From positions 3,196 to 67,195 of the forward strand of contig NIVC01002786.1 of NCBI GenBank assembly GCA_002269645.1: a stretch of 64,000 nt of DNA, written 5' to 3'. The translations under genes and the position numbers were made by a program. The stretch comes from Macrostomum lignano. Its lineage: Eukaryota. This document shows positions 1,615-61,110 of this stretch, piece after piece (positions within the stretch are counted from its first letter, which is position 1; every line of letters begins with the position of its first letter). Under the pieces are notes generated by a model, which saw only the letters and a program-made list of their open reading frames with translations, did no database searches and was not told the origin of the DNA.

Positions 1615-4600
1615 CTAGGCAAAGGAGCTTTTAAGCAGCCTGTGCACCGCATGGCCAATGCTAGATCTTTTGACCGCACTGGCGGCCGACTTCTGCTGGT
1701 GGTTTTGCCGTCGGCGCGGCGGCACCCTGTTGTCGCCAAAGAGGTGAAAATCTGCAAGCAAATACGGCCAAATAAATCCGCTGGGTCGAAGCGTTAACGA
1801 AATAGTGACAGGATTAACGATTAATTAATTAGGTTAATTGATTAGCTTAGCACAGCGGTTAAAGTTACGTAACTATAACGGTTAATAAATCATAATAGGC
1901 GGCTTTTTGCATACGCGAAATATTTTAAAGCGAAATCGGAGACTTCTCTTTGGTTAGGAACGACCCCATCTAATAAGGGAAAGAGCATGATCTCACTGCG
2001 CCCCCGGAAACAGGGAGCAACATTCTTGTCTGCCTGCTCCACAGACGCCGCACAACTCACCGACAAAGTCCTCCTTGGGCAGGGCGCACAGGCGGAGGCC
2101 GTCAACGCAGTCAACCGGAGCGTCCAGGCCCAGCGGCACGAAGCCGGACTCGCGGCAGACCACGAGCCGGTCCAGGCGGAGGCCGTACCGACCGCACACC
2201 GGGCGCAGCACGTCACGCAGCGATTTGGCTGGCCGAGCTCGGACACCGACGCACCGGCCGGCTGGGGCTGGCAGCTCTAGCCGGAACAGAACTCGCCGTT
2301 CCATCCGGATTTGCCGGCCAGCGAACGCCGACAGTGGAGCGTCCAGACCGCCGCTGCCGCTGACACCGTCGGGCTCGTCGTCGTTGAGCACGCGGACTTC
2401 AGCGGCGGCAAAGTTGAGGCCGCGCCGTTCGCAGAGATCTAGCAGGGCCTCGCGCAGGCTGCGCTGCTGCTGGCCGGCTGCGCCGCGAACGTCCAGCAGA
2501 GCCGAGGAGCCGTCAGCCAGCTGAACGCGGCAGCAGCCCGCAGCGGTGGGCAGCGCTGATGCAGACGGAGGTGACGGTGACCGAGATCCGTGCTGCTGCT
2601 GCTGATCGGAGTGGCGTCTCAGCGTGCGGCCTGTATAAACAATTGTTTAATAAGTTTTAGTAGCCAAAAATTTACACAATTTTTAATTCCTAGTAAAAGG
2701 GGCCTTCCGAAATAAGCGCTAAGAAGCGATTGGAATTTAAATAAAATTAGGACTCAAATTTGGGATTAAAAACTAAGAAGTAGGGATCAAGATTCCGAGA
2801 GCAGGGATTGGGAATCTGAAAGTAGGGATCGGGACTGAGAGTAGGGATCAGGACTGAGAGTAGGGATCAGGACTGAGAGTAGGGATCAGGACTGGGAGTA
2901 GGGATCGGGACTGAGAGTAGGGATCAGGACTCTGAGAGTAGGGATCAGGACTCTGAGAGTAGGGATCAGGACTGGGAGTAGGGATCGGGACTCTGAGAGT
3001 AAGGACCGTGGCAAGGCCAGCTCACCGCGAACCAAGCTCGCCAAGAAGCCGCGCCGCTTGGCCCCGCCGCCGTTGTCGAGAGTCTCGGCCCCGATAGTCA
3101 ACGGTCGCTGTTGTCGCTGTGCTGCGGCCGCGGCCACAGCCTCCCGGTAGCAGCTGGACTTGAGGAACCTGGCGTAGCTGTCCATCCGCATCAGATCGTA
3201 GATGTGCCGCTGCGCCTTGTCGAACGCGTGTCGACTTGGCGGCGGCCGACTGGCGTCCAGAATATCGGCGCGAAGCTGCTCAACCGTGGCGCCGTCCAGA
3301 TTGACGCACTGCGGCGCGTTGATGCCGATGAAGTCGTATACTATGCGGGCGGCTTCGGTTGACAGCTGCGGATGGGAGCAGCGCATCCGACACTATTTTC
3401 CAGTGACTGCTGGGTTTCCACCGGAGTTTCCCGATCCCAATTTTTAAGCCCTGATCATAAAATCCGAACTCATAAGTCACCGGTCCTAACTCTCTGACTC
3501 CCGATCCCAACTATTTGAGTCTAAATCCCAACTATCGAAGTCCCCATCCAAACTAATGGAAGTCCCGATCCCAATTAACGGAAGTTCCGATCCCAACTAA
3601 CGGAAGTCTTGATCCAAATACCAAAGTCCCGATCCCTACTATCGACGTCCCGATCCCTACTATCGACGTCCCGATCCCAACTATCGACGTCCCGATCCCA
3701 ACTATCGACGTCCCGATCCCAACTATCGACGTCCCGATTCCAACTATCGACGTCCCGATCCCAACTATCGACGTCTCGATCCCAACTATCGACGTCTCGA
3801 TCCCAACTATCGACGTCTCGATCCCAACTAACGGAAGTCCAAATCCCAACTAACGGAAGTCCCGATCCCAACTATCGAAGTCCCGACCCCAACTATCAAA
3901 GTCCTGATCCCAACTATCAAAGTCCTGATCCCAACTACTAAAGTCCTGATCCCAACTACCAAAGTCCCGATCCTAGCTATCGAAGTCCCGATCCCAACTA
4001 GCAAAGTCCCGATCCCAACTATCAAAGTCCTGATCCCAACTACTAAAGTCCTGATCCCAACTATCAAAGTCCTGATTCCAACTACCAAAGTTCCGATCCC
4101 AACTAGCGAAGTCCCGATCCCACTACTCATCCCCAGCCCCGAACTCACTGCCTCCTGGTCCTCAATCGCCCTATACCGCTCAACAGCCAGCCAGAAGGCG
4201 ACATTCTCTTCGCTGAACTCGCCGCGCAGAAATTCGGCGAACAGCTTGACGCCAGTCGGGTCGGCCAGCAGGCGGTCCAGCCCGGCCGACCAGTCGGAGG
4301 GACCGCCAGTGGCGGCTGTATCGTCGATGGCGTCGGGCGCATCAACGACGCCGGAGCCGAACGCCATCGCCGATTGGGGCCGGCGGCGCAGCAGCGGCGG
4401 CGGCGCCGGGACGAATTTGGCGCCGATTCCCGTACCGACGCCGAAGTCGCCGCCGCTGCGTCGGCGCTGATTGTCGGCAACGATTGGCGGCGATTCGGCG
4501 TCATCGGAGGAGGCGCTGCTGGCCAGATTCTGCGGTATGGAGAGGCGAGGCCGCTGGCTTTACTTAATTAGTTACCTAGCGTTAATTTGTAATTGCTTTT

Positions 4601-7275
4601 TAAGTGAGACATATTAGTTAAAAGGTCAGCTATGAGGGAAACTAGCTCTTCGGCATTGGACACTTGCTGCCTGATGCGCAAAAAAAGCGGCAGTTTTCTC
4701 CGCTTTACAATAATAACACTACCTCATATCATTCTGTCAGCTAAGATTTGGTTTCTTCAGTGGAGTTCAAGTCAGTGGAGCTCCAGTTAAATAGAATCCC
4801 AGTCAGTGAAATCACAGTTAGGAAAATTCCTGACAGTGGAATCCAATTAGGGGAATCCCAGATAGGAGAATCCTGTTAGGAGAATCCCAGCTAGGGGAAT
4901 CCCAGCTAGGGGAATCCCAGCTAGAGGAATCCAGTTAGGGGAATTCCAGTTAGGAGAATCCCAGCTAGGGGAATCCAGCTAGAGGAATCCAGCTAGGGGA
5001 ATCCCAGCTAGGAGAATATCAGCTAGGAGAATCCCAGCTAGGGGAATCCAGTTAGGGAAATCCCTGCTAGGAAAATCCCAGTTCGGGGAATCCAATTAGG
5101 AGAATTATAGCTAGGAGAATCCCAGCTAGAGGAATCCAGTTAGGGGAATCCCAGTCACCAATATAATAACTGGTACGAGCGTAAATCTGTACCTCACAAG
5201 AGAGCGCACTGAGTCCAGTTGTCCATCGCGTCGACGGAGCGACATCCGTCTTTTGCTGCTGCCCTTGAACAACTTCTCCAGAGGCCAGCGTCCTGACTGT
5301 TGAGTTCAACGATGCCGCCAGGCCAGTCAGGGTGCCCGATGAAGAGTCGGCGACGTGTATCGGAACCGACGGTCGACGAAGCTGGCGCTGCTGTCGATTG
5401 AGAGCCGGCGGGCCAGACGGCGGCGGGGTCGGATAGCTCAGACTGGGCGGCGCCGCGGCCTCCTTGTCGGCGAACAGGCGCACCAGCCGGTGCACGATGG
5501 GAGCCGCCACCTGAGGCAGCTGGGTGCAGCAGCCAGCGGACTCGTCCGGCTGGCAGTTCAATCCGAACGCCGCCGTCCATCGAGCGTGACCGCGGCGCCG
5601 ATGATCGGCTAGGCGGCCGCTGACCCGGAAGATGTGCACCGCGCCAGCGACGGTGAGGAGAGCAAAGTAGCGGGCGTCCTCGTTGTAGGCGCAGACGAAG
5701 GCCAGACTGTCTGCTGGCAGGCTGAGCAGCGAGCGGCTCGGGCGTCGGCGAGGCTGACAGAGCGCGGCGTCACCTCCAGAAGGGTCGGCTGGCCCGCCGC
5801 GGAAGTTGCTGGAGTCGGCGTCGGCTTCGTCGACGAGGTCGAAGACGACGGCGATAGTGAGGACGGCGAGGCCGAGGGCGACGACGGCTGCAGGCGGGCC
5901 GCGGCGCGGGCGCTGGCGATCGCCGAGCGAACGACGCGCAGCCGGTCGGCGGGCGCCGGGACCGGCAGCTGCAGGCTGGCGACGTGGATGACCAGCCAGC
6001 GGCCCGCCAGCTCACCCGACAGAGCCGAGGCAGTGGCAGCGGCGGCGTCTTCGTAGCGCTGCTCCGGCCCGATGGCGCCGCAGTGCTGATGCCGCGGTGG
6101 TGGCGGAGGCGGCGCCTGTTGCTGTGCCAGCTTTTGATGCGGCATTTCCGCTTCATCATTGTCTGAGCAGGCGCCTAGGAGGCTGGGCTCGGCCTGCGCG
6201 GCATCACAGATTAAGAATGAGTTCTCGCTCTGAGTAGTGCTCACGAATTCTGTTGTCATATTGATGAGGGCCGCCAAGTCCAAAGTAACAGTGGGCTTCG
6301 AACCTCAGACTGAGCCTTGTTTTGAACCTCAGACTGAGCTCGAAATATTGCAATGCCATCAACTTTCTCAAAAAGTCCCAAATGCCCAAAAGCTTCCTAC
6401 GTCTTAGAAGCTTCCCCCCAGCCCCTAAAATCCGTTCCGCCATTGATTTTTTTTTAAGTCACAGCCTTTAATTTCCCTACACCCTATAAATTCCCCACAC
6501 CCTACAAATTCCCCACACCCAATAAATTCCCCACATCCTTTAAATTCCCCACCCCTTTACCCCTTTAAACTCCCCACACGCTTTAAATTCCCCCACATCC
6601 TTAAATTCCCCATCCCTATACCTATTTAAACTCCCCACACGCTTTAATTCTCCACACGCTTTAAATTCCCCACACCCTTTAAATTCCCCTCACCCTTTAA
6701 ATTCCCTAAACGCTCTAAATTCCCCAAACGCTTGAAATTCCCCCACTTTTAAATTCCCCACACCCTTTAAATCACCCACACGCTTTGAATTCCCCACACG
6801 CTTTAAATTACCTACACCCTTTAAATTGCTCACACCATCAAAATTCCAACAGCTAAAGCTAAATTCCCTAGACCCTCTGAATTATCAAAACCTCTACGTT
6901 CCCTACAAAAGTTGACCAACTCACTGACACAACCTGAAGCGCCAGAGAGTCGCCGCTGGCGCCAATCAATGCAGCCACTCGCTCGTGCTCAGCCCCATCA
7001 ACTGGCTGGCCATTGACGCCCAGCAGGTAATCGCCAGGTTTCAGGCCGGCGTGCTGCGCGGCGCTGCCAGGCACAACTGCGCTAACAACGCACGGACGCT
7101 GGCCGCTGATGCTGAAGCCGTAGCCTGCCGGGAGTCTGTGCATAGCAACTGTGCGAACTGCATGCACAGTGCGGCACTGACGGCGGCAGTGGTGGCGGCG
7201 CTGTGCAGCCCGAAAGGCATCGCCTGCTGCTGCTGCGACACTGGAGGTCGCGACTGTTGCTCTTGCTATTGGCAT
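1615..7275 (-). CDS. RGS12: RGS12/loco-like regulator of G-protein signalling (PDZ, PTB, RGS, two Ras-binding domains), multi-exon
   Basis: Hand-built exons (minus): 7275-6925 PDZ (GYGFSISGQRPCVVSAVVPGSAAQHAGLKPGD); 6229-5193 PTB (HIFRV...DH...H..W..AFGLNC; one-base frameshift near 5736); 4553-4149 RGS N-half (WSAGLDRLLADPTGVKLFAEFLRGEFSEENVAFW); 3365-3026 RGS C-half (VNLD...FDKAQRHIYDLMRMDSYARFLKS); 2630-2061 RBD1+RBD2; tentative last exon 1751-1615. GT-AG junctions and phases are compatible. The domain order matches RGS12/loco. The start codon and last exon are uncertain. Confidence 0.88.
2780..3000. repeat. Intronic minisatellite, 19-bp unit (GAGAGTAGGGATCAGGACT)
   Basis: AGTAGGG at 2821, 2840, 2859, 2878. 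Confidence 0.9.
3500..4130. repeat. Intronic minisatellite, 21-bp unit (CCCGATCCCAACTATCGACGT)
   Basis: 7-residue periodicity in all overlapping ORFs. Lies in the intron splitting the RGS domain. Confidence 0.95.
4790..5155. repeat. Intronic minisatellite, ~16-bp unit (CCCAGCTAGGGGAATC)
   Basis: Visible tandem repetition. Confidence 0.85.
6470..6835. repeat. Intronic degenerate minisatellite (AAATTCCCCACACCCTTT-like)
   Basis: Visible tandem repetition with ~18-20 bp units. Confidence 0.8.
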
Positions 7276-12187: not shown

Positions 12188-15100
12188 TCACTGATCAACA
12201 TTTCCGGAAGTGTTGCTGGAACTGCCAACCGGATCTCTGCTGCTCATCGCCTGCTGGAGAATTCTGTAGCTCTCAGACTCGGTCGAGAATGGATTTCCCT
12301 GCAAGGGAGTGGCAATTGCTGGCATTTGATTGTACACGGATAACTAGTACTACTGCAGCTAGATGATCGAGACCCTCAGCAGCATATTTGCCTGTAAGCT
12401 ACTACCAGCTCAGTAGTAATGAAACATTTTCAAGCATTTTTATAAAGACACGGCTTATTCATTGGCTCTACCAACATCGCGTCTTTTTACACAGAATCTC
12501 TACCCCAGGTGCCCCACCGCCCATGCAATTTTATTGCCTTCTTCAATGCTCCAGCCTAAAGCTGCAATGTACATTTCAGTGAACTAGCTAATGTACATTA
12601 TGGCTGAACGCGAATTAGCAAGTTTGTTTACGCCTGCAAGCTAGCGCCCTGCAGATAAAGACCTGTCTAGAGGCTCTCAGGAGAGCGCAAGGGCGCGCTT
12701 GTCGCACGATCATGAGCGCCCCTCCGTCTGCTCCTTACGATGGCCTCAACGCCTTCCTCAACATTCCTCCGCTGGACATCTTTGTCCGCAGGGAAGCGGC
12801 TAAGACTGCCCGCCGTCTAGCTGACGCTGGCATTCGAATCCAGCCCCATAGGGCCATGGCTAAGCGCAAGCTTCTGCCCCACGCTGACCTCTGCCTCAAG
12901 GACTTGAGAGACAGCGGCGGGCTCCACGTCCTATCTGACGGCGAACCCCGCACTCTCAACCTCTTTCAGCGCTACAAGGTCACCATCCCCTCTAGGGATG
13001 CTGCCAATGACCACTGGAATTTCCAGGAGGTCCATTGCTACACGGACGGATCCATCAAAGACGGTCGCGCCGGCTTTGGGGTCTGCATCATCATCAACGG
13101 CCGCGTAATTGCCACGCATGCCCAGCACACTGGTAGACTCTCCACAGTCTTCCAGAACGAAGTCCTTGCCATCAGCTCTTGCGCTGCAGAGCTAAACGCC
13201 AAGGTTACGAGAGGAAAGACTATTGTCATCCACTCCGACAGCCAAGCGGCCTTACAGGCCCTTTGCCACACCACAACGAACTCCCGGACAGTCGCCGACT
13301 GCGCCCGGCAGCTCAACCTCCTGGCCAGAAGCAATACTGTCAGGCTGAAGTGGATCCCAGGGCACGCAGGGTTTCCGGGGAACGAGCTGGCAGACACCCT
13401 CGCCAAGAGGGGCGGCTCTGGCTCTTTTTTCGGCCCTGCCCCCCTGGTCCCTATGCCCTTGACAGTCATCAATCGTCAGATCGACGACTGGGCTGACTCC
13501 CTCCACAGGGACAGATGGGCGGGCACCCAAAACTGCCGGCAATCTCGTGCCGCGGTTCCTTGCCCGTCTCACAGGCTCAGAAACATCCTTCTGAACCAGA
13601 ATCGGAAGGATATTCGAGCCCTTGTCATGACCCTTACCGGCCATGGCTACCTCGCCAGGCACTGCTTCCTCCGAGGCGACCTCGAGAGCGAAATTTGCCC
13701 CTTTTGCGAGTGCGACAATGAAGATGCTCAGCACTTTGTCTGTCACTGCCCTTTCTTTAACAGAGACCGGCTACGCTACCTCGGGCCGAACCCGTCCATT
13801 GACGAGGTTTGCCAGCCCGACAGCATCCCACGGCTCATCCAGTTCCTTCGGGCGACTAGACGAGCCAGTTTCTTCCCAACGGAAGATCACGCTGCAGGAC
13901 GGACCGGCGGACCACCCTGACCGGCCCCACGCCTCTGCCTGTCTGCGGGCCTTCAGGGGCTAGCGGAATGGGCGACCCTCGCCTCCCCGCTGTGTCTACG
14001 GACCACCCTGCAGCTAAGTCAAGTCAAGTCAAAGTCAAGTAAGGCCCCACCGCCCATGCAATTTTATTGCCTTCTTCAATGCTCCAGCCTAAAGCTGCAA
14101 TGTACATTTCAGTGAACTAGCTAATGTACATTATGGCTGAACGCGAATTAGCAAGTTTGTTTACGCCTGCAAGCTTGGGTTTTAAACTTATCAAAGTCAT
14201 TTCAGCTGGCTTTATTTTTACAAAATAGCTTATGTATTCTTCATAGCTACTGAACTAAAAGTAGACAGAGAACTGAGAGTCGGTGAAAGTCGGCTTGAAA
14301 CTTAAAATCAAATTCGAATAAAATTTCAAAAAAATGTCAGGATAAGATCATAGTGGGGGACTTTACAGCTTCCGTCTCACCTGTAGCAGAAGCTTCATCA
14401 GTCCCGTGCCGTTCACCTTCTGCTTGCTCATGTAGGCCAGCTGGTAACTGACGGCCGTCTTCCACTGCAGCACGCCTTTGTCCGTGATCAGGTTTCCTGC
14501 AAGCAAGATAAAGATTGAGCAGGGTTTTTGTGTCAGCGCGTGGCATGATGATGAGATATACCAACTTATCCTGAATTTTGACACCGAATGCCATATATTG
14601 GCACTCAGTTAATTCCAAGCTGTTTAATTTAGATTTCATATTTTCTGTAATTCCATATTTCATTTGAAGCGTTAATAGTTTTATACTTATTGTCTTACAC
14701 TCGATTTTCTTAGAAATGAGAGCTGGAAGCCAATATAGAACGTTTAAAGAAGTATATAACCTTTATGGCAGAAGGCAAATGGCAGAGAAAGGATGAGGAC
14801 GCGGTTCTCAAGCCTTAGATAAACGCGTCCAAAGTTTTTTGCCATAGACACCAAAAGAACAGGCAAAGATTATTGGTATAGATCATTGTATACTTAATCT
14901 ACAGATGTCAGAAGCCCCATCACATAAGCGTCTATGGCCAAGCCTCACTAAAACGAAGCCTGAGAACTCGAAACGAGGCCAATTAACCAGTTGACAGGAC
15001 CAGTTGACATCTAATTTGGTCCAACAAGCATCAATTTGGTCCAAACACTCGTAAGCCATTCGGGAAATTCTTGCCTTCTCGCAACCGTCTGCAGGTTGTT

Positions 15101-45515: not shown

Positions 45516-48448
45516 TTTTGTCTCAAATGCAACAGGCTAAGCATACTTTGTAAATTGGAAAGTAAAGATGTGGATGACATCATTGGTATGACAGAGTCGA
45601 GAAGGCCCTTTTACGCGCCATATCTGACATGTGAATTGCCTGGGCTAATGATACTATGAATTGCATATATTGCATATAATTGTCACATATAGAAAAATCG
45701 ATTAAACTTAATTTGAAAACGCGAGTAATCAGCAAAAAGTTGGGGTGCTTTCACAGGGTCGAAATTTCACGTCGAAAAGTAAATTATTTCACAATATCAA
45801 AAACTTTAGCAAGGGACTTCATAAGGTCGAAATTTCAAAGCGTTGAAAACTTAATTTAACAAGAACTGTGCAGTAGTCGAAATAGACTTCGAGTCAATGG
45901 CAGTAAATTAAGTAATGAAATGACAATTAAAACTTACAATTGAGACAATGACAATTATGGCATCCCGTAAATGCCATGAGAGTGGGTAGAAACGGAGGGT
46001 GGGAAATTCTTAGTCAATTATTTCAAACTTGCTTTTTTAAGCTTTCAAACTTCAATCTTTTTAAAAGTTTATTCTCGGAGATGCTTCACCTTCCATTCTT
46101 TGTTTCTCTGGAACTACTGTTGTTAAGGCTGGCGAGGGGCCCAAGCCAAGGTACGAGTACATGTAAGTCGCAAAAATTCCCACCGAAAAAGACGTGGCAC
46201 TAATTAGATGACGAGGCATTTAGCCTTAATGTAATAATAAATAGTTACTCCTGCCGTTTACCCAAAATGCGTTTTTACTTGGGTTTTTTTATATTATAGC
46301 TAAGTCGCACTGCCTCTGTAAATCAGGGGGTTGCGCCTCAGCGCATGTACATGTATGTTTGAGAGCACATCCGAAGGTAAGCTATTTGAGATGGCCCTTT
46401 GCACAGCCTTCTGCTTGAGCACGACGGAAGCAAATCTTCTCAGCCTCCCGAAAGCAGTCGGGGTGCTTTCACAGGTCTAAAAGAAAATTATTTCACAAGG
46501 TCGAAATTTCACATTAAAAACTTGAATAGCAGCCACTTTCACAGGGTCGAAACTTTATTAGCTCGAAATTTCGGGAGCACCCCAACTGCCAGCCGGAAAA
46601 CCGCCAGCCGACAACTGCCAGCCGACAACTGCCAGCCGACAACTGCCAGCCGAAAATTGCCAGCCGAGAAAACTGCCAGTTGGAAAACTGCCAGTCGACA
46701 ACTGCCAGCCGACAAGTTCTAGCTAATTGAATCTACTGTAGCCTACTTATTAGCTAAGTAAAAAGTACGAAACTGTTTGGCTAGCAAAAGGCTTGTGGGG
46801 TAGCCTTAAATGTCGCCCTTCCCTTCCCTAATTTTTTCAGATTTCCATTAGAAGTGTATATGTGAAAGAGAAGGCATTCTGTAATGCCTATTGTAAATAT
46901 ATTTGTATTGAAAGTTCATTTACTTTATTATTTAATTTGCGATTGCGATTGCTATATGACGCAATCCTAGAAAAGTCTATTAAATTACTTTACTTAAATA
47001 AAGCTTTCAAAGAAAGAGCAAAGGCTACCTAAAATACGAAATTTGAACCAAGATGTTCGTGCAGGAGCCGAAAGTTGCCAGCTCTGATTCGCGCACATGC
47101 CGCACAAGCTTACAAACTTTTGTTGGCGATAAAACAAAACAACTTGTAGCTAGGCTAACTGATTTCTGTAACAATGCAATGGCAACCTGTTTTTGCTGAA
47201 TAATAAACTGATTTAATAAATAGTAAACAAAGCTGTCTACTTTCTAGCTAGATCCTGAATGCCATATTGCGGAAGGTGTAGTGTACGCCGGAAAATTCCG
47301 GCGTACAAACGCTTTGTCTGGCGTACATCTAGCGTTTTTCTCGCTGGCAGTTTTCTCGGCTGGCAATTGTCGTCTGGCAATTGTCGACTGGCAATTGTCG
47401 ACTGGCAGTTGTCGGCTGGCAGTTTTCCGGCTGGCAGTTGTCGGCTGGCAGTTGTCGACTAGCAGTTTTCCGGCCGGCAGTTGGGGTGGACCCCGAAATT
47501 TCACGTCGAAAACCTGATATAACAAGAACCATGCAGTGTAGTTTTCTGCGTTGCGAAATTTCGATCTTGTGAATGTGGCTGCTAAGTTTTCTACGTTGTG
47601 AAGGTTCGACGAAGAACAAGACCAGCGTCTTAACACCTGGCTAATCAACCAAATTGATATTAAAAAGTGCTACATGAAGCGAGTGGCTCCGCCACTAGTG
47701 AAAAAATTAATCATTGTCTACCTAAGTCTTTATTGCTTAAGCACATGCATTGTTTCATGAATGAATTTTAGTAGCCTTATATTAAATTGACTTCGAAGCG
47801 TTGAAAAATGAGCGTACACCATGGATAAATAATCAGCTGTCCCAGTGCGTGACGATTGTCTGGCGAGCGCCTGTAGGCGCGAGCCATAGACAAATCGCTG
47901 TCACGTGCTGCGACCGCTGATTCTTTGCATTGTTTTTCTGTTTGCCGATCCTACAGACAATGCATTGTTTGTAGTAACGGATTGTTCTGCATTAAAATTG
48001 TGAATAATGATCGTCAAATTGCTAAACAATGACATATGTTTACTTTAACTTCCTTCACCCTAAATTCCTAAATTCAGCCATTAAATAGCAATTCCTTCAC
48101 GGCCCCTAAAAGGGCCGTTTTATTACCGTGCAAGTGCAAAATTGTCAACTAGCCGTTGAGGTTCACGAAGTACAGGATTGAATCCTAAACAAACTTTAAT
48201 GTAAGTAATGTAACTTACAATAAATACTCTTATGTGCATTAAGCTAAGATCACGATCTCTACCCAAAGTTACACAGTTGGGTTTTTATAGACATTCCGTA
48301 AATTTTTCTGTACGAACATACAGTAATGTAGCACATTGCCTGTTTTGAGTAAAAAGGATTATTACAGCTCAGCAGCTGTTCTATACAAGTTTAGGCAGGG
48401 GGTTTTGACTAAACTAAGCAGGCGATTTTGACATCAATTTAATGTGGT

Positions 48449-48572: not shown

Positions 48573-48989
<417 letters not shown>

Positions 48990-50734: not shown

Positions 50735-51040
50735 GCTTGCTATCTGGGGGGATGCTTGCTATCAGGGGGGATGCTTGCTATCAGGGGCCGGGATGCTTGC
50801 TATCAGGGGATGCTTGCTATCTGGGGGATGCTTGCTGTCTGGGGGATGCTTGCTGTCTGGGGGATGCTTGCTATCAGGGGATGCTTGCTATCTGGGGGAT
50901 GCTTGCTGTCTGGGGGATGCTTGCTGTCTGGGGGATGCTTGTTATCAGGGGATGCTTGCTATCTGGGGGATGCTATCTGGGGGGATGCTTGCTATCTGGG
51001 GGATGCTTGTTATCTGGGGGATGCTATCTGGGGGGATGCT
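50735..51040. repeat. 18-bp satellite (GGGGGATGCTTGCTATCT), left part of an array interrupted by the polB element
   Basis: 6-aa periodic ORFs (GGCLLS). The same array resumes at 55431. Confidence 0.95.
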
Positions 51041-51836
51041 ACTACGTAATGCGCAGATAGAGCAGGGTTTTCAGGCAGATTTGACGCAAAAAACGCAAAT
51101 TATACTACTATCTGAAAATGAAGTAAGTAGTATACAAAAACGCTATCCTAAGCGTGATGTGGCAATATGTAGTTGTAATAATCCATGTGCTCATATTAAT
51201 ACCATGTACATTAATCCCTATCTATCTCAAATTGTACATTAATTCCATGTACATTAATCCCTATCCCAAATTGTCTATCCCCAATTCTATATGTACATGT
51301 GCATTAATCTACAGTGTCATCCCCAGCGCGCGCGCACCAACATTACATGTACAATGCTACATGTACACAGAGGCGAGAATTACTAATCTCATCTACTACC
51401 AAATGAGTCAACTAACCGTGTAGCGTACATCATGTATAAGTATTTACAATGAAGATATATTTACATTTAATCAGTAGCATATTACAGGAAATAATTTATG
51501 TACAGCATTACCAGCAAATAGAATATACAGAAAATTTTACATTGTTTTTCATTAATTTTCTTTTCATAAATAATTTTAAACAAGTTTGACACGCAAAATA
51601 TGTACAATAGATTTTTACATTGGCAATTTCGCTGCATACAATACAAAAATGCTTTATGTACATTTGTATAGTAGTATGTAACTCTTCATTAATTTAACAT
51701 GCAAAATATGTACAACAATAAATAGATTTTACTCAGTCAAATTTAACAAGATATTTATTAAGCAAGGGCCACATTATTTATAACCATAAGGCCTGCTGCA
51801 GGCCCCGTACACGCGCTTCGTCAGGACGCGCTGAAA
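51041..51836. repeat. Left terminal inverted repeat (796 bp)
   Basis: Reverse complement of 54635-55430. The same 89-aa ORF appears at 51154-51423(+) and 55048-55317(-), each 113 bp from its end. Confidence 0.97.
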
Positions 51837-51861
51837 GGCTCCCAAAGTGAAAGCTTCGACT

Positions 51862-54697
51862 ATGCCATACGTGTTCTACGATACGGAAACATACACGGAC
51901 GAGGAGAAGCAGCATCACGTGCACCTGGTGACTGCCGTCACGTGCTGCGAGACCTGCTCCGGCCGGGCGTTTCCGCGCGAGACTTGCCGCCTCTGCAATG
52001 GCCTGCATAGCGCCGCCAATTGTCTGACTGGCCGCGATCTGGGGGAGGAATTCTCCAATTGCGTCAGCCACTCAGACTGCGCCTGCCAAATGGCCGATTT
52101 TGTGGCTGTGGGCCCGGCCTCGCTGAATGCGTTTTTCACCTGGCTGAGCACAGCTTTCCGAGGCGGCGCCATTGTTGTAGCGCACAATGCATCAGGCTAC
52201 GATTCGTTCCTACTGCTTGGCGCTCTACTCAACGGCCTGGCCAAGAAGCGGCCACAAGTACTGTTCCAGGGCAGCCGGCTAATGAGCATGACGGTGGATA
52301 AATTGGTATTTAAAGATTCATTAAATTTTATACCAATCCCGCTTGCGCAATTCCCCAAAGCTCTGGGGCTCGCTAACACAAAGCTGGCCAAGGGGACCTT
52401 TCCCCACGAGTTTAACAAGCCGGCTAATTGGAACTACGTTGGCCCCTACCCGGCTATTGAATATTATGGCGGCAAAGCGAACAAGGACTATGACTCAATC
52501 TGTGCTTGGCTAGCCTCGCGACAGGGCGAGTTGTTCAACTTTAATCGGGAATATCTCGATTATTGTTTGAGCGACACAGTCCTGCTTCGCGAGGGCTGCA
52601 TCAAGTACAGGGCAATAATTGGTGAAATTTGCGACGGCCTGGAACCGTTTGTTCAGGCCAATACGATTGCCAGTTTGGCAATGGCCGTTTTCACCACCCG
52701 GTTTATGGAGCCCAACTCGGTCGGCGTGATTGCCCGGCAGGCCGACCAGCAGTCGTTCAAGGCGCGCAAGTGGCTGGCCTATTTGAATGCCACCGAATTT
52801 GGCGGGCGGCTGCGAACCTGCGACTCGACTGGCGGCGAGGCTGTCATTCTCGGCCGCAAGGTGGACGGCTTCGATGAGGCGAGCAACACTGTTTTGCAGT
52901 TTCATGGCTGTTTCTACCATGGCTGCGAGCAGTGTATGCCCGATCAGGATGTCGTCCACCCGCTCAAACGGCAGCCTCTGAGCCATATTCGCCACGAGAC
53001 TGAGTGGTTCACTCGCGAGTTGGAGCGGCACAATTACAGTGTTCGAGTCATTTGGGAGCATGAGTACGACACTGTATTGGCGTCGCAGGCCGACTTTATC
53101 GCCGCAACTGCACATCTGCGCGCTCCGCTCAAGATGGAGGATGCGCTCTACGGTGGCCGCGTAGAGTGCTTTATCCCGCATGCTGTGGCCAGCGAGACTG
53201 AGACTCTCAAATATCGGGATGTGGTGAGTAGCGATACTACTAATATAGTAGAATATTTTGCAAAAAATACAGTTTATGAAAAAAAAATAATGCTTTATTT
53301 CAACTGGCAGGTCTCTCTGTACCCGACGGTGCAGTCGAAAGACCCATACCCGATTGGCCACCCGGTGCAACATCCGACGCCGCAAGTGCTCGATTCTGAC
53401 GCGCTGGCTAGCTACTTTGGCATTGCCAAGGTGACAGTGCTGCCGCCGTCAGATTTGCACATTCCGCTGCTGCCCTACAGGGTGCAAAAGAAGCTCTTTT
53501 TTGGGCTTTGCCGCACCTGTATGGAGCAGCAGTGCGGCGAGTGCTGCGACCACTCTGACCAGCAGCGGGCACTGACTGGTACCTGGGCAACGCCGGAGCT
53601 GCGGAAGGCCTTCCAGTTGGGCTACCGGCTGCAGGCGGTGCACGCGCTGGCCTACTGGACAGAGAAGCGGACCGGTCTGTTCAGTGACTATGTCAGCACC
53701 TTTCTCAAGCTGAAGGCTGAGTCGAGCGGTTCCCCCGGCATGTCGGATGAAGACAAGGCCGCCTACATTGCCGATTTTTACGCCAAGGAGGGCGTCACGC
53801 TGGACAAGGTCGAGCCCAACCCAGGACTTCGCTTTGTAGCGAAAATCTTTTTGAATTCGTAAGTATTCATAAATTTTTGTATTTTAAATGATTTTCTTCT
53901 TCTACTAACAGTAGCACTTCTTTTCACAACACACAGGCTCTGGGGCAAATTTTGTCAGCGTGATGACCTGACATCGACAGAAATTGTATCCAGCTACGAG
54001 GACTGGCTCGCCCGGCTGACCGACCCCAACCTCAAAGTCAAGGCCTGCGAACCGATTGGCAGCGAGTTTATGCTGCTAGAGTACCGGCACCGCTATTTTA
54101 ATCAGCGGCCGTTCCGGTACTCCAATGTGCCAATCGGGGTCTTTACGACCACTCAGGCCCGGCTGCGCCTGTATGAGGCATTGGAGGGGCTCGGCGAACG
54201 GGCCATTTACTGCGACACTGACTCGTAAGTATTGCATTGGGAAAATTATTTTAGAATTGATTACATGTAAATAGTTAGCAATTATCTCGTTTTCTCTCCC
54301 ACACAGGGTCGTTTACCGGCATTCCGAGGGCCAATGGGAGCCGCCCCATGGCACGAGCCTCGGAATGTGGACCGATGAGGTGCCCGCAGGCAGCCGGATG
54401 ACCGACTTTGTAAGTGGGGGGCCCAAACTCTACACTTACATTGTCGAGGATGCGGCCGGTGCCCGGAGTCAGGTCCTGAAGTGCAAGGGCATCCGCCTGA
54501 CTCCGGAGATTCGGGAGCGCAGCGATGAATTGCGCAGTGCCCTACTACACGGCGGCTCCCTGCAGCTGCCGCAGCTTCAGTTTAGGCGCGACAAGGCGTC
54601 TTGTACCATACACACAATCAATATGGACAAGACGTTTCAGCGCGTCCTGACGAAGCGCGTGTACGGGGCCTGCAGCAGGCCTTATGGTTATAAATAA
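51862..54697 (+). CDS. polB: Protein-primed family B DNA polymerase (Polinton/adintovirus type) with VSR-like nuclease insert; 4 exons, ~862 aa spliced; N-terminal terminal-protein region missing
   Basis: Exons 51862-53223, 53311-53858, 53937-54224, 54307-54697 (2589 nt, in frame). ExoI FYDTET, ExoII AHNASGYD, ExoIII YCLSDT; insert VDG...QFHGCFYHGC...IWEHE; motif A YRDV^VSLYP; LCRTC...H...RALTGTW...EL; motif B KIFLNS^LWGKFCQR; motif C IYCDTDS^VVY; KLY, KCKG and terminal KR...PYGY. Confidence 0.95.
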
Positions 54698-55430
54698 TGT
54701 GGCCCTTGCTTAATAAATATCTTGTTAAATTTGACTGAGTAAAATCTATTTATTGTTGTACATATTTTGCATGTTAAATTAATGAAGAGTTACATACTAC
54801 TATACAAATGTACATAAAGCATTTTTGTATTGTATGCAGCGAAATTGCCAATGTAAAAATCTATTGTACATATTTTGCGTGTCAAACTTGTTTAAAATTA
54901 TTTATGAAAAGAAAATTAATGAAAAACAATGTAAAATTTTCTGTATATTCTATTTGCTGGTAATGCTGTACATAAATTATTTCCTGTAATATGCTACTGA
55001 TTAAATGTAAATATATCTTCATTGTAAATACTTATACATGATGTACGCTACACGGTTAGTTGACTCATTTGGTAGTAGATGAGATTAGTAATTCTCGCCT
55101 CTGTGTACATGTAGCATTGTACATGTAATGTTGGTGCGCGCGCGCTGGGGATGACACTGTAGATTAATGCACATGTACATATAGAATTGGGGATAGACAA
55201 TTTGGGATAGGGATTAATGTACATGGAATTAATGTACAATTTGAGATAGATAGGGATTAATGTACATGGTATTAATATGAGCACATGGATTATTACAACT
55301 ACATATTGCCACATCACGCTTAGGATAGCGTTTTTGTATACTACTTACTTCATTTTCAGATAGTAGTATAATTTGCGTTTTTTGCGTCAAATCTGCCTGA
55401 AAACCCTGCTCTATCTGCGCATTACGTAGT
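54635..55430. repeat. Right terminal inverted repeat (796 bp), overlapping the last 63 nt of polB
   Basis: Begins at TTTCAGCGCGTCC (codons FQRVL...). Contains the stop at 54695-54697 and AATAAA at 54712. Confidence 0.97.
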
Positions 55431-56150
55431 GATGCTTGCTATCTGGGGGATGCTTGCTATCTGGGGGATGCTTGCTATCTGGGGGATGCTATCTGGGGGG
55501 ATGCTAGCTATCTGGGGGATGCTTGCTATCAGGGGGGATGCTTGCTATCAGGGGATGCTTGCTATCTGGGGGATGCTTGCTGTCTGGGGGATGCTTGCTG
55601 TCTGGGGGATGCTTGTTATCAGGGGATGCTTGCTATCTGGGGGATGCTATCTGGGGGGATGCTTGCTATCTGGGGGATGCTTGTTATCAGGGGATGATAT
55701 GCGGTTGCTTACTCTTGGAGGGCGGTGCTTGCTATCTGGGAGATACTTGTTATCTGCGGGATGCTTGCTATCTGGGGAATGCTTGCTATCTGGGGGGGGG
55801 GTGCTTGTTATCAGGGATGCTTGCTATCTGGGGAATGCTTGCTATCTTGGGAATGCTTGCTATCAGGGGATGCTTGCTATCAGGGGATGCTTGCTATCTG
55901 GGGGATGCTTGCTATCTGGGGAATGCTTGCTATCTGGGGGGGGGGGGTGCTTGTTATCAGGGATGCTTGCTATCTGGGGAATGCTTGCTATCTTGGGAAT
56001 GCTTGCTATCAGGGGATGCTTGCTATCTGGGGGGGTGCTTGTTATCAGGGGATGATATGCGGTTGCTTACTCTTGGAGGGCGGTGCTTGCTATCTGGGAG
56101 ATACTTGTTATCTGCGGCATGCTTGCTATCAGCTGGGGGATGCTTGCTGT
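55431..56150. repeat. 18-bp satellite (GGGGGATGCTTGCTATCT), right part
   Basis: Same unit as 50735-51040. Confidence 0.95.
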
Positions 56151-58843: not shown

Positions 58844-61110
58844 TTAAAGCGGTTTCAGCCGTTCCAACTCCAATTCCAAGGCAATCCTTTGCTCGGTGAC
58901 CTCCTTGAGCTCGACAGCCAGTTCATTGTTGAGCCTAACCAGGGTGTGATTCTTCTCTTTCTGAGCCTTCACCGCCGCTAGCAGGCGTTCCCGATTGGGC
59001 GGCTGGCCGGAGGCAACAGCGGCGGCGTCGGCAGCAGCGGCGGCAGCAGCAGCGGAGGACGCCAGCTGATAGCTGGCAGCTCGTGGCGGCACAGTCGGAG
59101 CGGACGGGTCGGCGTGCTGTTGCAGGAGATGCTGCTGCTGATGCGCTGTCGGTTTCCTAGGGGTCGGATGAAGCACGCCAACACCGGTTGGAGGAATTCC
59201 GCCAAAGACTGACGGCTCCGGCGGCGGCTGCTGCTGGTGAATTGGCGGTGGCGGCGGCATCGTCGGAGGCGGCGAAGCCTCGTCCTGGTCGGACAGCGGC
59301 TCGTAGCCGGCAGCAACAGGGGGCAGCCTGTCGGGTATCGGCACATTGTTGCGCCTCAGCACGACCAGGTGCATCGCGGTGGAGAACTCGGCCAGGTTGA
59401 GCTGGCCGTCCATGTCGCGATCGGACAGGGCCCAGATGCGGGACAGCTCGGGCGGGGGCAGGCGGGACTTCTCAAAGAACTGCTTGGCCACTGGGCCGGT
59501 GATGCGGCCGGTGAGGCTGGGGCACAGGGTGAGGAATTGGTTGGCGTAGTACTCGCGCTGCTCGCGGGTCATGGCCAGCGGATCCGAGCTGTCCTCTTCA
59601 TCCTCGAAGCCGCCAGCGCCGCCGCCGTTGCCCTCAACGTACTTGTGCCGGTCGTCGGGCGCGTCGCCAGCCTGGCTGTCGGAGTCGTCCGAATCCGACG
59701 TCGAATCGTCATCATCGACATCGTCGCCGTCGTCGTTTTTGGATCCCCCGACGCCGCCTTCTGCCGAGGACGACGAGGCGGCCCGACGATGACGTCGGCG
59801 AGAGGCGCCGCGGCCGCCAGTGGATGCTGCGGCAGCGGTCGAGCCGGCCAAAGGCTCGCGGCCAGCGGCCGAGCCGCTGATGAGGCCAGTGTCCGAGTCG
59901 ACGTCCGAGAAGTGGGCCCAGCCGCCGCCGCTGCCGCGCCCAGACTGGTCAGTGCCGCCGCCGCCGGCCCCGGGATCGGCGTCTTCGTCCGAGTGGCGCC
60001 GGACTCCGCCGCCGGCCTCGGCAGCGTCGACAACTCTAGGTGCTTCGTCGGCGTCGGCGCTAGAGGAGCCCGGCTTCAGTTTGGGCTTCGGTTTTGGCTT
60101 CGGCTGCGGCGGCGGTAGCGCCGAGCGGTCCAGACTGGCCGCCCTGGCGTCTCCAGGCGTGGCGGCGCCGGCGACCTTAGGGGAGGGGCGTTTTTAAATG
60201 TGAGTTAAATAATAGTTACAATTTGCGCGCTTTTCTACTGAGCGGGACGAAGGCAGTAGAGGATAAAAAAATTTAATGTATCTGTAGTCTAAATGAGTCA
60301 GAATGACAGTTTCTTCTCAAGCAATATCTGATTTCCCCAGTAGATAATACCCCCAATTCCTCAGTAGATAATATCCCAATTCCTCAGTAGATAATAACCC
60401 CAATTCCTCAGTAGATAATATCCCCAATTCCTCAGTAGATAATATCCCAATTCCTCAGTAGATAATATCCCAATTCCTCAGTAGATAATATCCCAATTCC
60501 TCAGTAGATAATATCCCAATTCCTCAGTAGATAATATCCCAATTCCTCAGTAGATAATACCCCCAATTCCTCAGTAGATAATATCCCCAATTCCTCAGTA
60601 GATAATATCCCAATTCCTCAGTAGATAATATCCCAATTCCTCAGTAGATAATACCCCAATTCCTCAGTAGATAATACCCCAATTCCTCAGTAGATAATAT
60701 CCCAATTCCTCAGTAGATAATATCCCAATTCTTCATTAGATAATATCTTCAATTCCCCAGTAGATAATATCCCAATTCCTCAGTAGATAATATCCCAATT
60801 CCTCAGTAGATAATATCCCCAATTCCTCAGTAGATAATATCCCAATTCTTCATTAGATAATATCTTCAATTCCCCAGTAGATAATATCCCAATTCCTCAG
60901 TAGATAATATCCCAATTCCTCAGTAGATAATATCCCAATTCTTCATTAGATAATATCTTCAATTCCCCAGTAGACAAAAACCTGAAAACAAGTATTTTAT
61001 CACACCTATGCAAACCTACCTTTTGCTGCAATACATCTTTCTTGCTTGGGGGTGGAGGTATGTAGCTAGCAGAGCCACGTCTCTCAGCTGTCACAGGAGG
61101 ATCCCTGGCT
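58844..61110 (-). CDS. REPS1: RalBP1-associated Eps-homology domain protein (REPS1/2-like), 3' exons only
   Basis: Terminal exon 60175-58844 (acceptor CCCCTAAG, phase 0, open) encodes an EH domain (QREYYANQF...ITGPVAKQFFEKSRLPPPELSRIWALSDRDMDGQLNLAEFSTAMHLV) and a C-terminal coiled coil (KEKNHTLVRLNNEL...RIALELELERLKPL) typical of REPS. Tentative upstream exon ~61110-61020 (SYIPPPPSKK, donor AAG|GTAGGT). The first EH domain is not found in the window. Confidence 0.85.
60340..60972. repeat. Intronic minisatellite, 23-bp unit (AATTCCTCAGTAGATAATATCCC)
   Basis: Period 23 (60481, 60504). Confidence 0.95.

Follow-up and report, generated by a model that had tools for sequence, protein, structure and literature searches.

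A polB-carrying Polinton-type derivative in Macrostomum lignano and the probable origin of its 796-nt inverted repeat by copy-back and later deletion

The window analyzed here is a stretch of 64,000 nucleotides (nts) of the flatworm Macrostomum lignano (GenBank assembly GCA_002269645.1, contig NIVC01002786.1, positions 3,196 to 67,195 of the forward strand; C2786 below), and positions are counted from its first letter. At 51041-55430 lies an element of 4,390 nt, a derivative of the Polinton type that carries polB, a gene for a family B DNA polymerase. The two arms of the element (51041-51836 and 54635-55430) are each 796 nt long and 100% complementary, and a perfect inverted repeat of this length is far beyond chance. 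The element is bounded by a 6-bp target site duplication (TSD), and its features are as follows.

51035..51040, + strand: left TSD GATGCT (6 bp), inside a GATGCTTGCTATCTGGGG-type minisatellite; the same TSD is present in C4430 and C3085, two sister copies
51041..51836, - strand: left inverted repeat, 796 nt, mirror of the right end and probable remnant of a 2,299-nt arm
51041..51071, + strand: terminal 31-nt module, identical at both ends and equal to the left end of an integrase-capsid element (G000:C175:235327)
51774..51836, - strand: antisense copy of the last 21 polB codons, from sequence comparison
51835..51836, no strand: junction with 2-nt microhomology AA, where 1,571 nt of the sister copies are gone, including the probable original copy-back junction
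51837..51861, + strand: remnant of the linker (APKVKAST) that joins the last zinc finger to the exonuclease, from comparison with other copies
51862..53223, + strand: polB exon from an internal Met, 1362 nt (exonuclease, nuclease-like insertion, start of the palm)
53132..55430, + strand: stretch that the sister copies carry mirrored as their 2,299-nt left arm, the inner end of the stretch being the probable original copy-back point
53224..53310, + strand: intron, 87 nt, GT..AG, in frame without a stop; spliced joint in one run presumed to be RNA, at the level of the family
53311..53858, + strand: polB exon, 548 nt (VSLYP ... KIFLN), predicted
53859..53936, + strand: intron, 78 nt, GT..AG, predicted; no spliced joint listed
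53937..54224, + strand: polB exon, 288 nt (LWGKF ... YCDTD), predicted
54225..54306, + strand: intron, 82 nt, GT..AG; spliced joint in one run presumed to be RNA, at the level of the family
54307..54697, + strand: last polB exon with the stop, 391 nt, predicted
54635..55430, + strand: right inverted repeat of the window copy, with AATAAA at 54712-54717
55431..55436, + strand: right TSD GATGCT (6 bp), direct repeat of the left TSD

The left arm is composed of the ~310-nt natural repeat of the family, the 3′ untranslated region and the last 63 nt of polB, and the right arm begins at the TTT codon of FQRVLTKRVYGACSRPYGYK* (54635-54697, 63 nt). An earlier note, made from the letters of the window alone, had described a 796-nt terminal inverted repeat (TIR) that holds the last 63 nt of polB and its AATAAA, and had placed the end of the left arm at 51836, 25 nt upstream of the ATG and about 14 codons ahead of ExoI (FYDTET); all of these numbers were confirmed, with the ATG located at 51862 and the arm ending 43 nt ahead of the Asp of FYDTET. 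The AA at 51835-51836 can be assigned to either side of the junction. The 31-nt module at the termini is a predicted replication origin or integrase site, the former being a putative function.

The polB of the window matched PF03175, the protein-primed family B polymerases, at E = 2.4e-28. Its four exons add up to 2,589 nt, or 863 codons including the stop, and contain no internal stop, so that the frame encodes 862 amino acids. The nuclease-like insertion, which we take to be Vsr-like by motif, had no Pfam match. Two introns of the family were spliced in one run presumed to be RNA and in none of three other runs, which bears on the family and not on the window copy.

A search of the genome with the window element gave 119 matches (best 39 of 345 candidates), and the long ones, except for the window's own, all begin at position 795 of the element or later. 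When 30 loci were inspected at the junction anchor, parental upstream coding sequence, rich in cysteine, was found at 23; four rows showed the junction of the sister copies and one that of the window, and two had no anchor. Copies with both ends are ~9.5 kb long and have repeats of ~310-345 nt. The true TIR, whose length the earlier note had proposed to check, is accordingly shorter than 796 nt, and 796 nt as the natural repeat of the family was ruled out. Since the natural repeat is ~310 nt, a copy of the right end did take the place of the left arm in the window element.

Upstream of KAPKVKAST, where a terminal protein had also been looked for at the suggestion of that note, the common form has coding sequence for zinc fingers, a vOTU-like domain and a terminal protein. 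The near-invariant N-D-x-x-C-x-x-R and a later HF motif of the vOTU-like region fit this assignment, and the domain is split by an intron. The terminal-protein exon was modeled from 22 sequences with a mean pLDDT of 83.7, giving two strands, a helix, two strands, a helix and a strand, and its sole invariant residue, Ser90, is located in the loop before the last strand. The accessible text of 10.1101/2024.03.18.585575 describes the topology of the D1 terminal-protein domain and the position of its linking residue, and the lost exon resembles that domain in having the same topology and a Ser in the expected loop. The best matches of the model among solved structures were Y-family little-finger domains (Z 6.1-6.6, rmsd 3.0-5.1, 82-99 aligned), and the same accessible text reports a relationship between terminal protein and little finger. 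On this model the lost exon is a terminal protein, an assignment for which Z is not decisive alone.

The predicted first exon of the common-form polB (L033:2850-3090, minus strand, and five other copies) was found in six of the seven copies examined. It has a TATA box, a short basic poly-Gln peptide and a phase-1 donor, its length changes keep the frame, and the gene models of the database miss it. The earlier note had supposed that the terminal protein and other genes were lost with the left arm. This holds for the terminal protein, but the search for further genes in the lost arm and the remaining 3 kb was negative: seven frames had no Pfam match above the cut-off, and translated comparison with a related polB family gave nothing, in a search that a very divergent or many-exon gene could escape.

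The junction at 51836 became clearer from the sister copies on C4430 and C3085, which are elements of 5,961 and 5,960 nt with arms of ~2,299 nt. Both flanks are common to C2786, C4430 and C3085 (99.2-99.95% in unique parts) and the TSD is the same, indicating that these are three assembled copies of one insertion. Compared with C4430, the first 796 nt of the window copy are identical, the next 1,571 nt are gone, and there are two substitutions in the other 3,594 nt. The 5.96-kb form retains ~65 nt of parental sequence, with the loop inverted between two short inverted repeats, and this could not have arisen from the window copy. Because this sequence is kept only in the longer form, the direction of change was from the long form to the window copy, and the copy-back point lies ~65 nt upstream of the window junction. 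From these comparisons, 51836 is most likely a deletion junction with 2-nt microhomology and not, as the earlier note had it, the point of copy-back: the same insertion was assembled twice more, with repeats of 2.3 kb, and taking 1,571 nt from that form gives the window copy.

The proposal that a copy of the right end replaced the left arm thus survives, as the natural repeat is shorter and copy-back is frequent in the family, but the breakpoint is not 51836. The outcome comes near to the simple internal deletion that the earlier note had named as the case against its proposal, from a parent that already had a copied left end. The neat fall of the break at a domain boundary, also remarked there, is real in that it lies inside the linker of ~10 codons between the last zinc finger and ExoI, but the place coincides with a DNA stem-loop and the copy is single and unamplified. 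A reverse case was seen at G000:C157:77046-83269 (L048-L049), where the polB 3′ end is joined to inverted upstream polB sequence; both breakpoints of this unrelated inversion lie no more than ~120 nt from the two breakpoints of the window element.

Copy-back is also apparent in the rest of the family. The 26-nt subterminal motif has 155 occurrences, and among the first 100 listed, with the nested C157 cluster left out, we counted 30 facing pairs, some of which are haplotype copies. The pairs comprise 20 polB-free palindromes, eight elements with polB and two short copies without it. The gene-free palindromes are thus more numerous than the copies with polB, likely as a result of template switches by the polymerase of the element itself. 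Measured palindrome arms reach 4.2-4.8 kb at 99.2-99.9% identity; the symmetry of C126, C600, C1299a and the outer C1485 copy was taken from maps with the arms unmeasured, and C1190 is suspect. Exact matches to one snap-back centre, which has a 48-nt spacer, were found at 19 places on 15 contigs, and its copies have different TSDs where checked. One centre with different TSDs indicates that the palindrome itself was multiplied and inserted as a unit; no non-palindromic parent of this centre was found among 30 loci. One-sided inner deletions like that of the window are present in many palindromes, and the right end is expanded in other polB copies as well, by ~384 (C3173), 693 (C1945), 845-903 (C566) and 1,473 nt (C2274). 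The possibility that the palindromes are read chimeras was rejected, as their flanks are unmirrored and their TSDs direct, except for C1190 (G000:C1190:89300-93050, L095), where the host flanks are mirrored too and there is no direct TSD, a possible assembly artefact.

The termini give a second measure of end-copying. Among 39 elements examined, two lacked an end, and in 30 of the remaining 37 the terminal 31 nt, of which the ends show 51 types, were identical at both ends, as against 40 of 2,664 comparisons between elements. Ordinary polB copies matched at both ends in 10 of 13 cases, and a 6-bp TSD was present in 35 of the 37 elements. Identity of the ends within an element is what copying from the other end before insertion predicts. 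As judged from these ends and arms, the overwriting of one end by copy-back from the other is a pervasive trait of the family, and the family-wide pattern is a stronger finding than the window junction.

Positions 6-31 of the 51 distinct ends (loci L001-L143) are mosaics of a few short modules, such as AGAT/AGAA/CAAA and TCTGCA/TGTTGT/AAGTGT, which are combined in many ways, and this holds for polB, palindromic and integrase/capsid elements. Members of the family are often nested (G000:C1485, C157, C471, C513), for instance a polB copy within a palindromic copy at C1485, and at G000:C362:496180-525280 three units of ~9.9 kb stand in tandem, every one closed by a family end, from either a tandem duplication or an assembly repeat.

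Among 173 loci, integrase- and capsid-type genes of the kind found in C175 occurred at none of the polB loci and at four loci without polB. The C175 element (G000:C175:235327-245769) is 10.4 kb long with a 6-bp TSD; its first 31 nt are those of the window copy, it has a left-arm stretch in common with the polB form, and it encodes an rve integrase (E = 2.5e-08). Its capsid, protease and ATPase are labels that we presume from motifs, and the capsid-like frame had no Pfam or PDB sequence match. Elements of 9.6-10.4 kb with integrase and capsid-, protease- and ATPase-like frames and no polB were seen at C175, C10, C166 and C296 (L111-L112, L124, L126, L128-L129); the repeat is ~806 nt in C175 and ~65 nt in C10, and the ends differ in both of the elements compared. 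No rve integrase match was obtained in the window or any polB locus, and no capsid, protease or packaging ATPase genes were found in the polB loci. A genome search for the packaging ATPase PF04665 was negative; as it also passed over the Walker A frame of C175, this search is insensitive here. The stretches around capsid matches near C211, C234, C175 and C1176 contained no element with both the polB of the family and C175-type genes. These results suggest that the rve integrase was probably supplied in trans, by a polB-free integrase/capsid element with common terminal modules.

The origin that we consider likely for the window element is a copy-back to the 5.96-kb form, insertion in trans and a later deletion of 1,571 nt. 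It would start from the common form, which is ~9.5 kb long with ~310-nt repeats, has ~3 kb without detectable genes and carries a polB starting with terminal-protein and vOTU-like domains. Copy-back at the stem-loop in the last zinc-finger codons would have placed the last 2,299 nt, mirrored, next to the exonuclease region, with the loop inverted, to give 5,961 nt. The product of this step is seen in the sister copies, and we infer the mechanism, which is likely to have been a template switch by the protein-primed polymerase of the element, replicating outside the chromosome. Insertion by an rve integrase acting in trans, a source that we propose, would account for the observed 6-bp TSD. In one chromosome copy the long palindrome would then have lost 1,571 nt across the 2-nt microhomology, leaving the 796-nt repeat, as we infer from the three copies of one locus.

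Several points weigh against this origin. The copy-back form is known from one insertion, so that its own mobility would be putative, and it may have formed in the chromosome. Neither junction is spanned by a shown read or independent contig, and the window contig may hold an assembly slip. The deletion ends at most 70 nt from the first junction, inside the 10-codon linker, which is a coincidence of a few percent. Microhomology of 2 nt is expected by chance in 16% of random deletions and so points to no particular pathway. In the reference copy, one other short inverted repeat of the polB span is better than the stem-loop at the linker, whose window ranks 66 of 202 by folding energy, giving only modest support to a hairpin as sole cause of the break. 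As for the terminal protein, Z values below 8 may reflect a common arrangement, and the model had no match in a viral fold library at E 0.001. Finally, the search for integrase elements covered the best 3 of 147 candidates, and a complete full-length parent may therefore exist.

It is unlikely, in our view, that the 796-nt boundary arose from an error of assembly or consensus, by which all chromosome copies would be 5.96 kb long and 1,571 nt were dropped at the long inverted repeat. The longer form is present in two of the three assembled copies, the window junction sequence has one occurrence in the genome assembly, and none of the 32 listed contig pieces crosses 51836, although the list shows just a small part of more than 22,000. 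However, the window contig has its own substitutions in the element and the flanks, as a separate chromosome copy would, and these separate alleles argue for a real chromosome copy; the similar inner deletions in many palindromes of the family point the same way.

We regard as similarly improbable that a full-length copy inserted and that its left repeat was afterwards lengthened in the chromosome by host double-strand-break repair, either by fold-back priming or by gene conversion between the repeats, with the polymerase uninvolved; such a course has been proposed for foldback transposons and for foldback inversions of yeast. The restriction of the 5.96-kb form to one insertion and the inversions of chromosomal look in nested clusters such as C157 are consistent with such a course. 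However, the one palindrome centre shared by many insertions with different TSDs speaks for units that were replicated and inserted, the matching 31-nt ends of ordinary polB copies point to end-copying before insertion, and the assembly holds no full-length allele of the window locus.

A single copy-back at 51836 on the domain boundary, with a translatable polymerase lacking the terminal protein being expressed and kept, as the earlier note had proposed, is very unlikely: the 862-codon frame is open, the break lies in a short linker before ExoI and introns of the family are spliced, but the junction is the deletion junction of a longer form at the same locus, the copy is single, and an open frame is expected from youth alone (two substitutions compared with the sister copies).

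Under the preferred origin by copy-back and later deletion, the polB of the window is a truncated one. The window copy is without the terminal-protein, vOTU-like and zinc-finger coding part of polB, it has also lost the TATA box and the basic first exon that the common form has, and the Met at 51862 is an ordinary internal residue in other copies. The frame could be expressed, given a TATTTATA word at 51775 that is followed by no ATG before 51862 and an A at -3 of the ATG, but 145 nt upstream the same strand has an AATAAA. An upstream spliced exon as the source of the N-terminus was ruled out, as the upstream sequence is an antisense 3′ end with in-frame stops. We regard the 862-codon frame as most likely a by-product that has neither promoter nor first exon nor terminal protein, and there is no support for a selected or expressed primer-less polymerase. 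A protein-primed polymerase minus its terminal protein still requires a primer, and loss of the terminal protein alone does not make a primer-independent polymerase. The earlier note's description of a translatable primer-less polymerase is therefore right about the open frame, but primer independence is unsupported, the copy is single and the promoter is gone. The protein is a truncated protein-primed PolB, and nothing points to the piPolB of pipolins.

Hairpin and palindromic derivatives are known from yeast and fungal linear plasmids, adenovirus uses panhandle replication and end repair, and a racket model exists for Polintons, whose replication has been modeled and is not known to have been observed. 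Matching termini, recurrent expansions and an amplified palindrome are predictions of strand displacement with panhandles, and the present family therefore offers evidence for it at the sequence level. One centre junction together with known termini provides ready markers for replication intermediates.

According to the accessible parts of 10.1101/2023.08.22.554363, PMC8097293, PMC8502044 and PMC6431247, Polintons are 13-25 kb long, with repeats of 100-1,500 nt and polB, integrase and virion genes. The flatworm family is like the Polintons/Mavericks described there with a pfam03175 (Alpha-class, OTU-bearing) PolB in its predicted TP-vOTU-Exo-palm order (TP, terminal protein), inverted repeats at the termini and TSDs of 6 bp. 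In contrast, the pfam03175 Polintons in these accounts are 13-25 kb long, intronless in vertebrates, have repeats of 46-1,500 nt and unite integrase, capsid, protease and ATPase in one element, whereas polB of the flatworm family has introns and is alone on a 9.5-kb element, with arms of up to 4.7 kb. The flatworm termini are ACTACG, as against AGTAGT or AGAGAG in the Polintons so described. In Caenorhabditis elegans, polB with repeats and without integrase is recorded at 10 loci (10.1101/2024.01.15.575659).

Template switching of phi29 leads to subgenomic molecules (Murthy 1998, as cited in the accessible text of PMC4974454). As summarized there, phi29 is likewise a protein-primed, strand-displacing replicon giving one-end molecules with origins kept and genes lost; its products and those of linear plasmids are, in the descriptions available, transient and extrachromosomal, whereas those of the flatworm are fixed in the germ line with TSDs, and one was amplified. 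Copy-back and snap-back genomes of RNA viruses and adeno-associated virus (AAV), as far as the available accounts describe them, share with the present elements the replacement of one end by the complement of the other, a panhandle or near-perfect hairpin and, putatively in the flatworm, helper dependence. In the flatworm, arms of 796 and 2,299 nt stand against a natural repeat of ~310 nt; the 31-nt ends were kept, while the terminal protein, promoter and first exon were lost. With respect to helper-dependent multiplication, the window form is one insertion, and a gene-free palindrome of the same family has 19 exact centre matches. Unlike those viral genomes, the present one is an integrating DNA transposon-virus, for which helper interference and packaging would be hypothetical. 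Foldback transposons (Galileo, Tetris, Mutator/Foldback) resemble the family, in what is available on them, by long variable inverted repeats, inner tandem repeats and non-coding palindromes, but they move by cut-and-paste with a transposase, whereas the flatworm family descends from a self-synthesising PolB element.

The window element works like a copy-back defective genome and is neither an autonomous Polinton nor the source of a primer-independent polymerase. In the literature as accessible, we found no report of amplified snap-back palindromes or copy-back Polinton derivatives; subscription journals, Repbase and supplements may hold cases. Polinton screens that require polB and integrase would miss all these elements, and the 9-kb gene-free palindromes would be classed as foldback transposons. 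Tentatively, and with somewhat less confidence than would be needed to prefer it, we suggest a split Polinton with defective-interfering genomes, in which a polB segment, an integrase/capsid segment and gene-free palindromes would co-replicate, swap 31-nt modules, copy their ends through panhandles and share an integrase. If this is true, the flatworm genome would be a fossil record of defective-genome dynamics, with palindromes outnumbering the polymerase segment.

The genome contains many other PF03175 families (119 matches, best 91 of 974 candidates) and 73 double jelly-roll matches. Elsewhere in the window, host exons with PDZ, RGS and RBD domains in an RGS12-like order lie at 1993-7275 (- strand), an RNase H retroelement fragment at 12712-13920 (+ strand), and the end of an EH-domain gene at 58844-59572 (- strand). 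A lone histone H3 gene at 48573-48983 (- strand) has KMPFQR and SAVQAL, motifs that depart from canonical H3. A small inverted repeat of short tandem units, MITE- or foldback-like, is located at 46566-47500.

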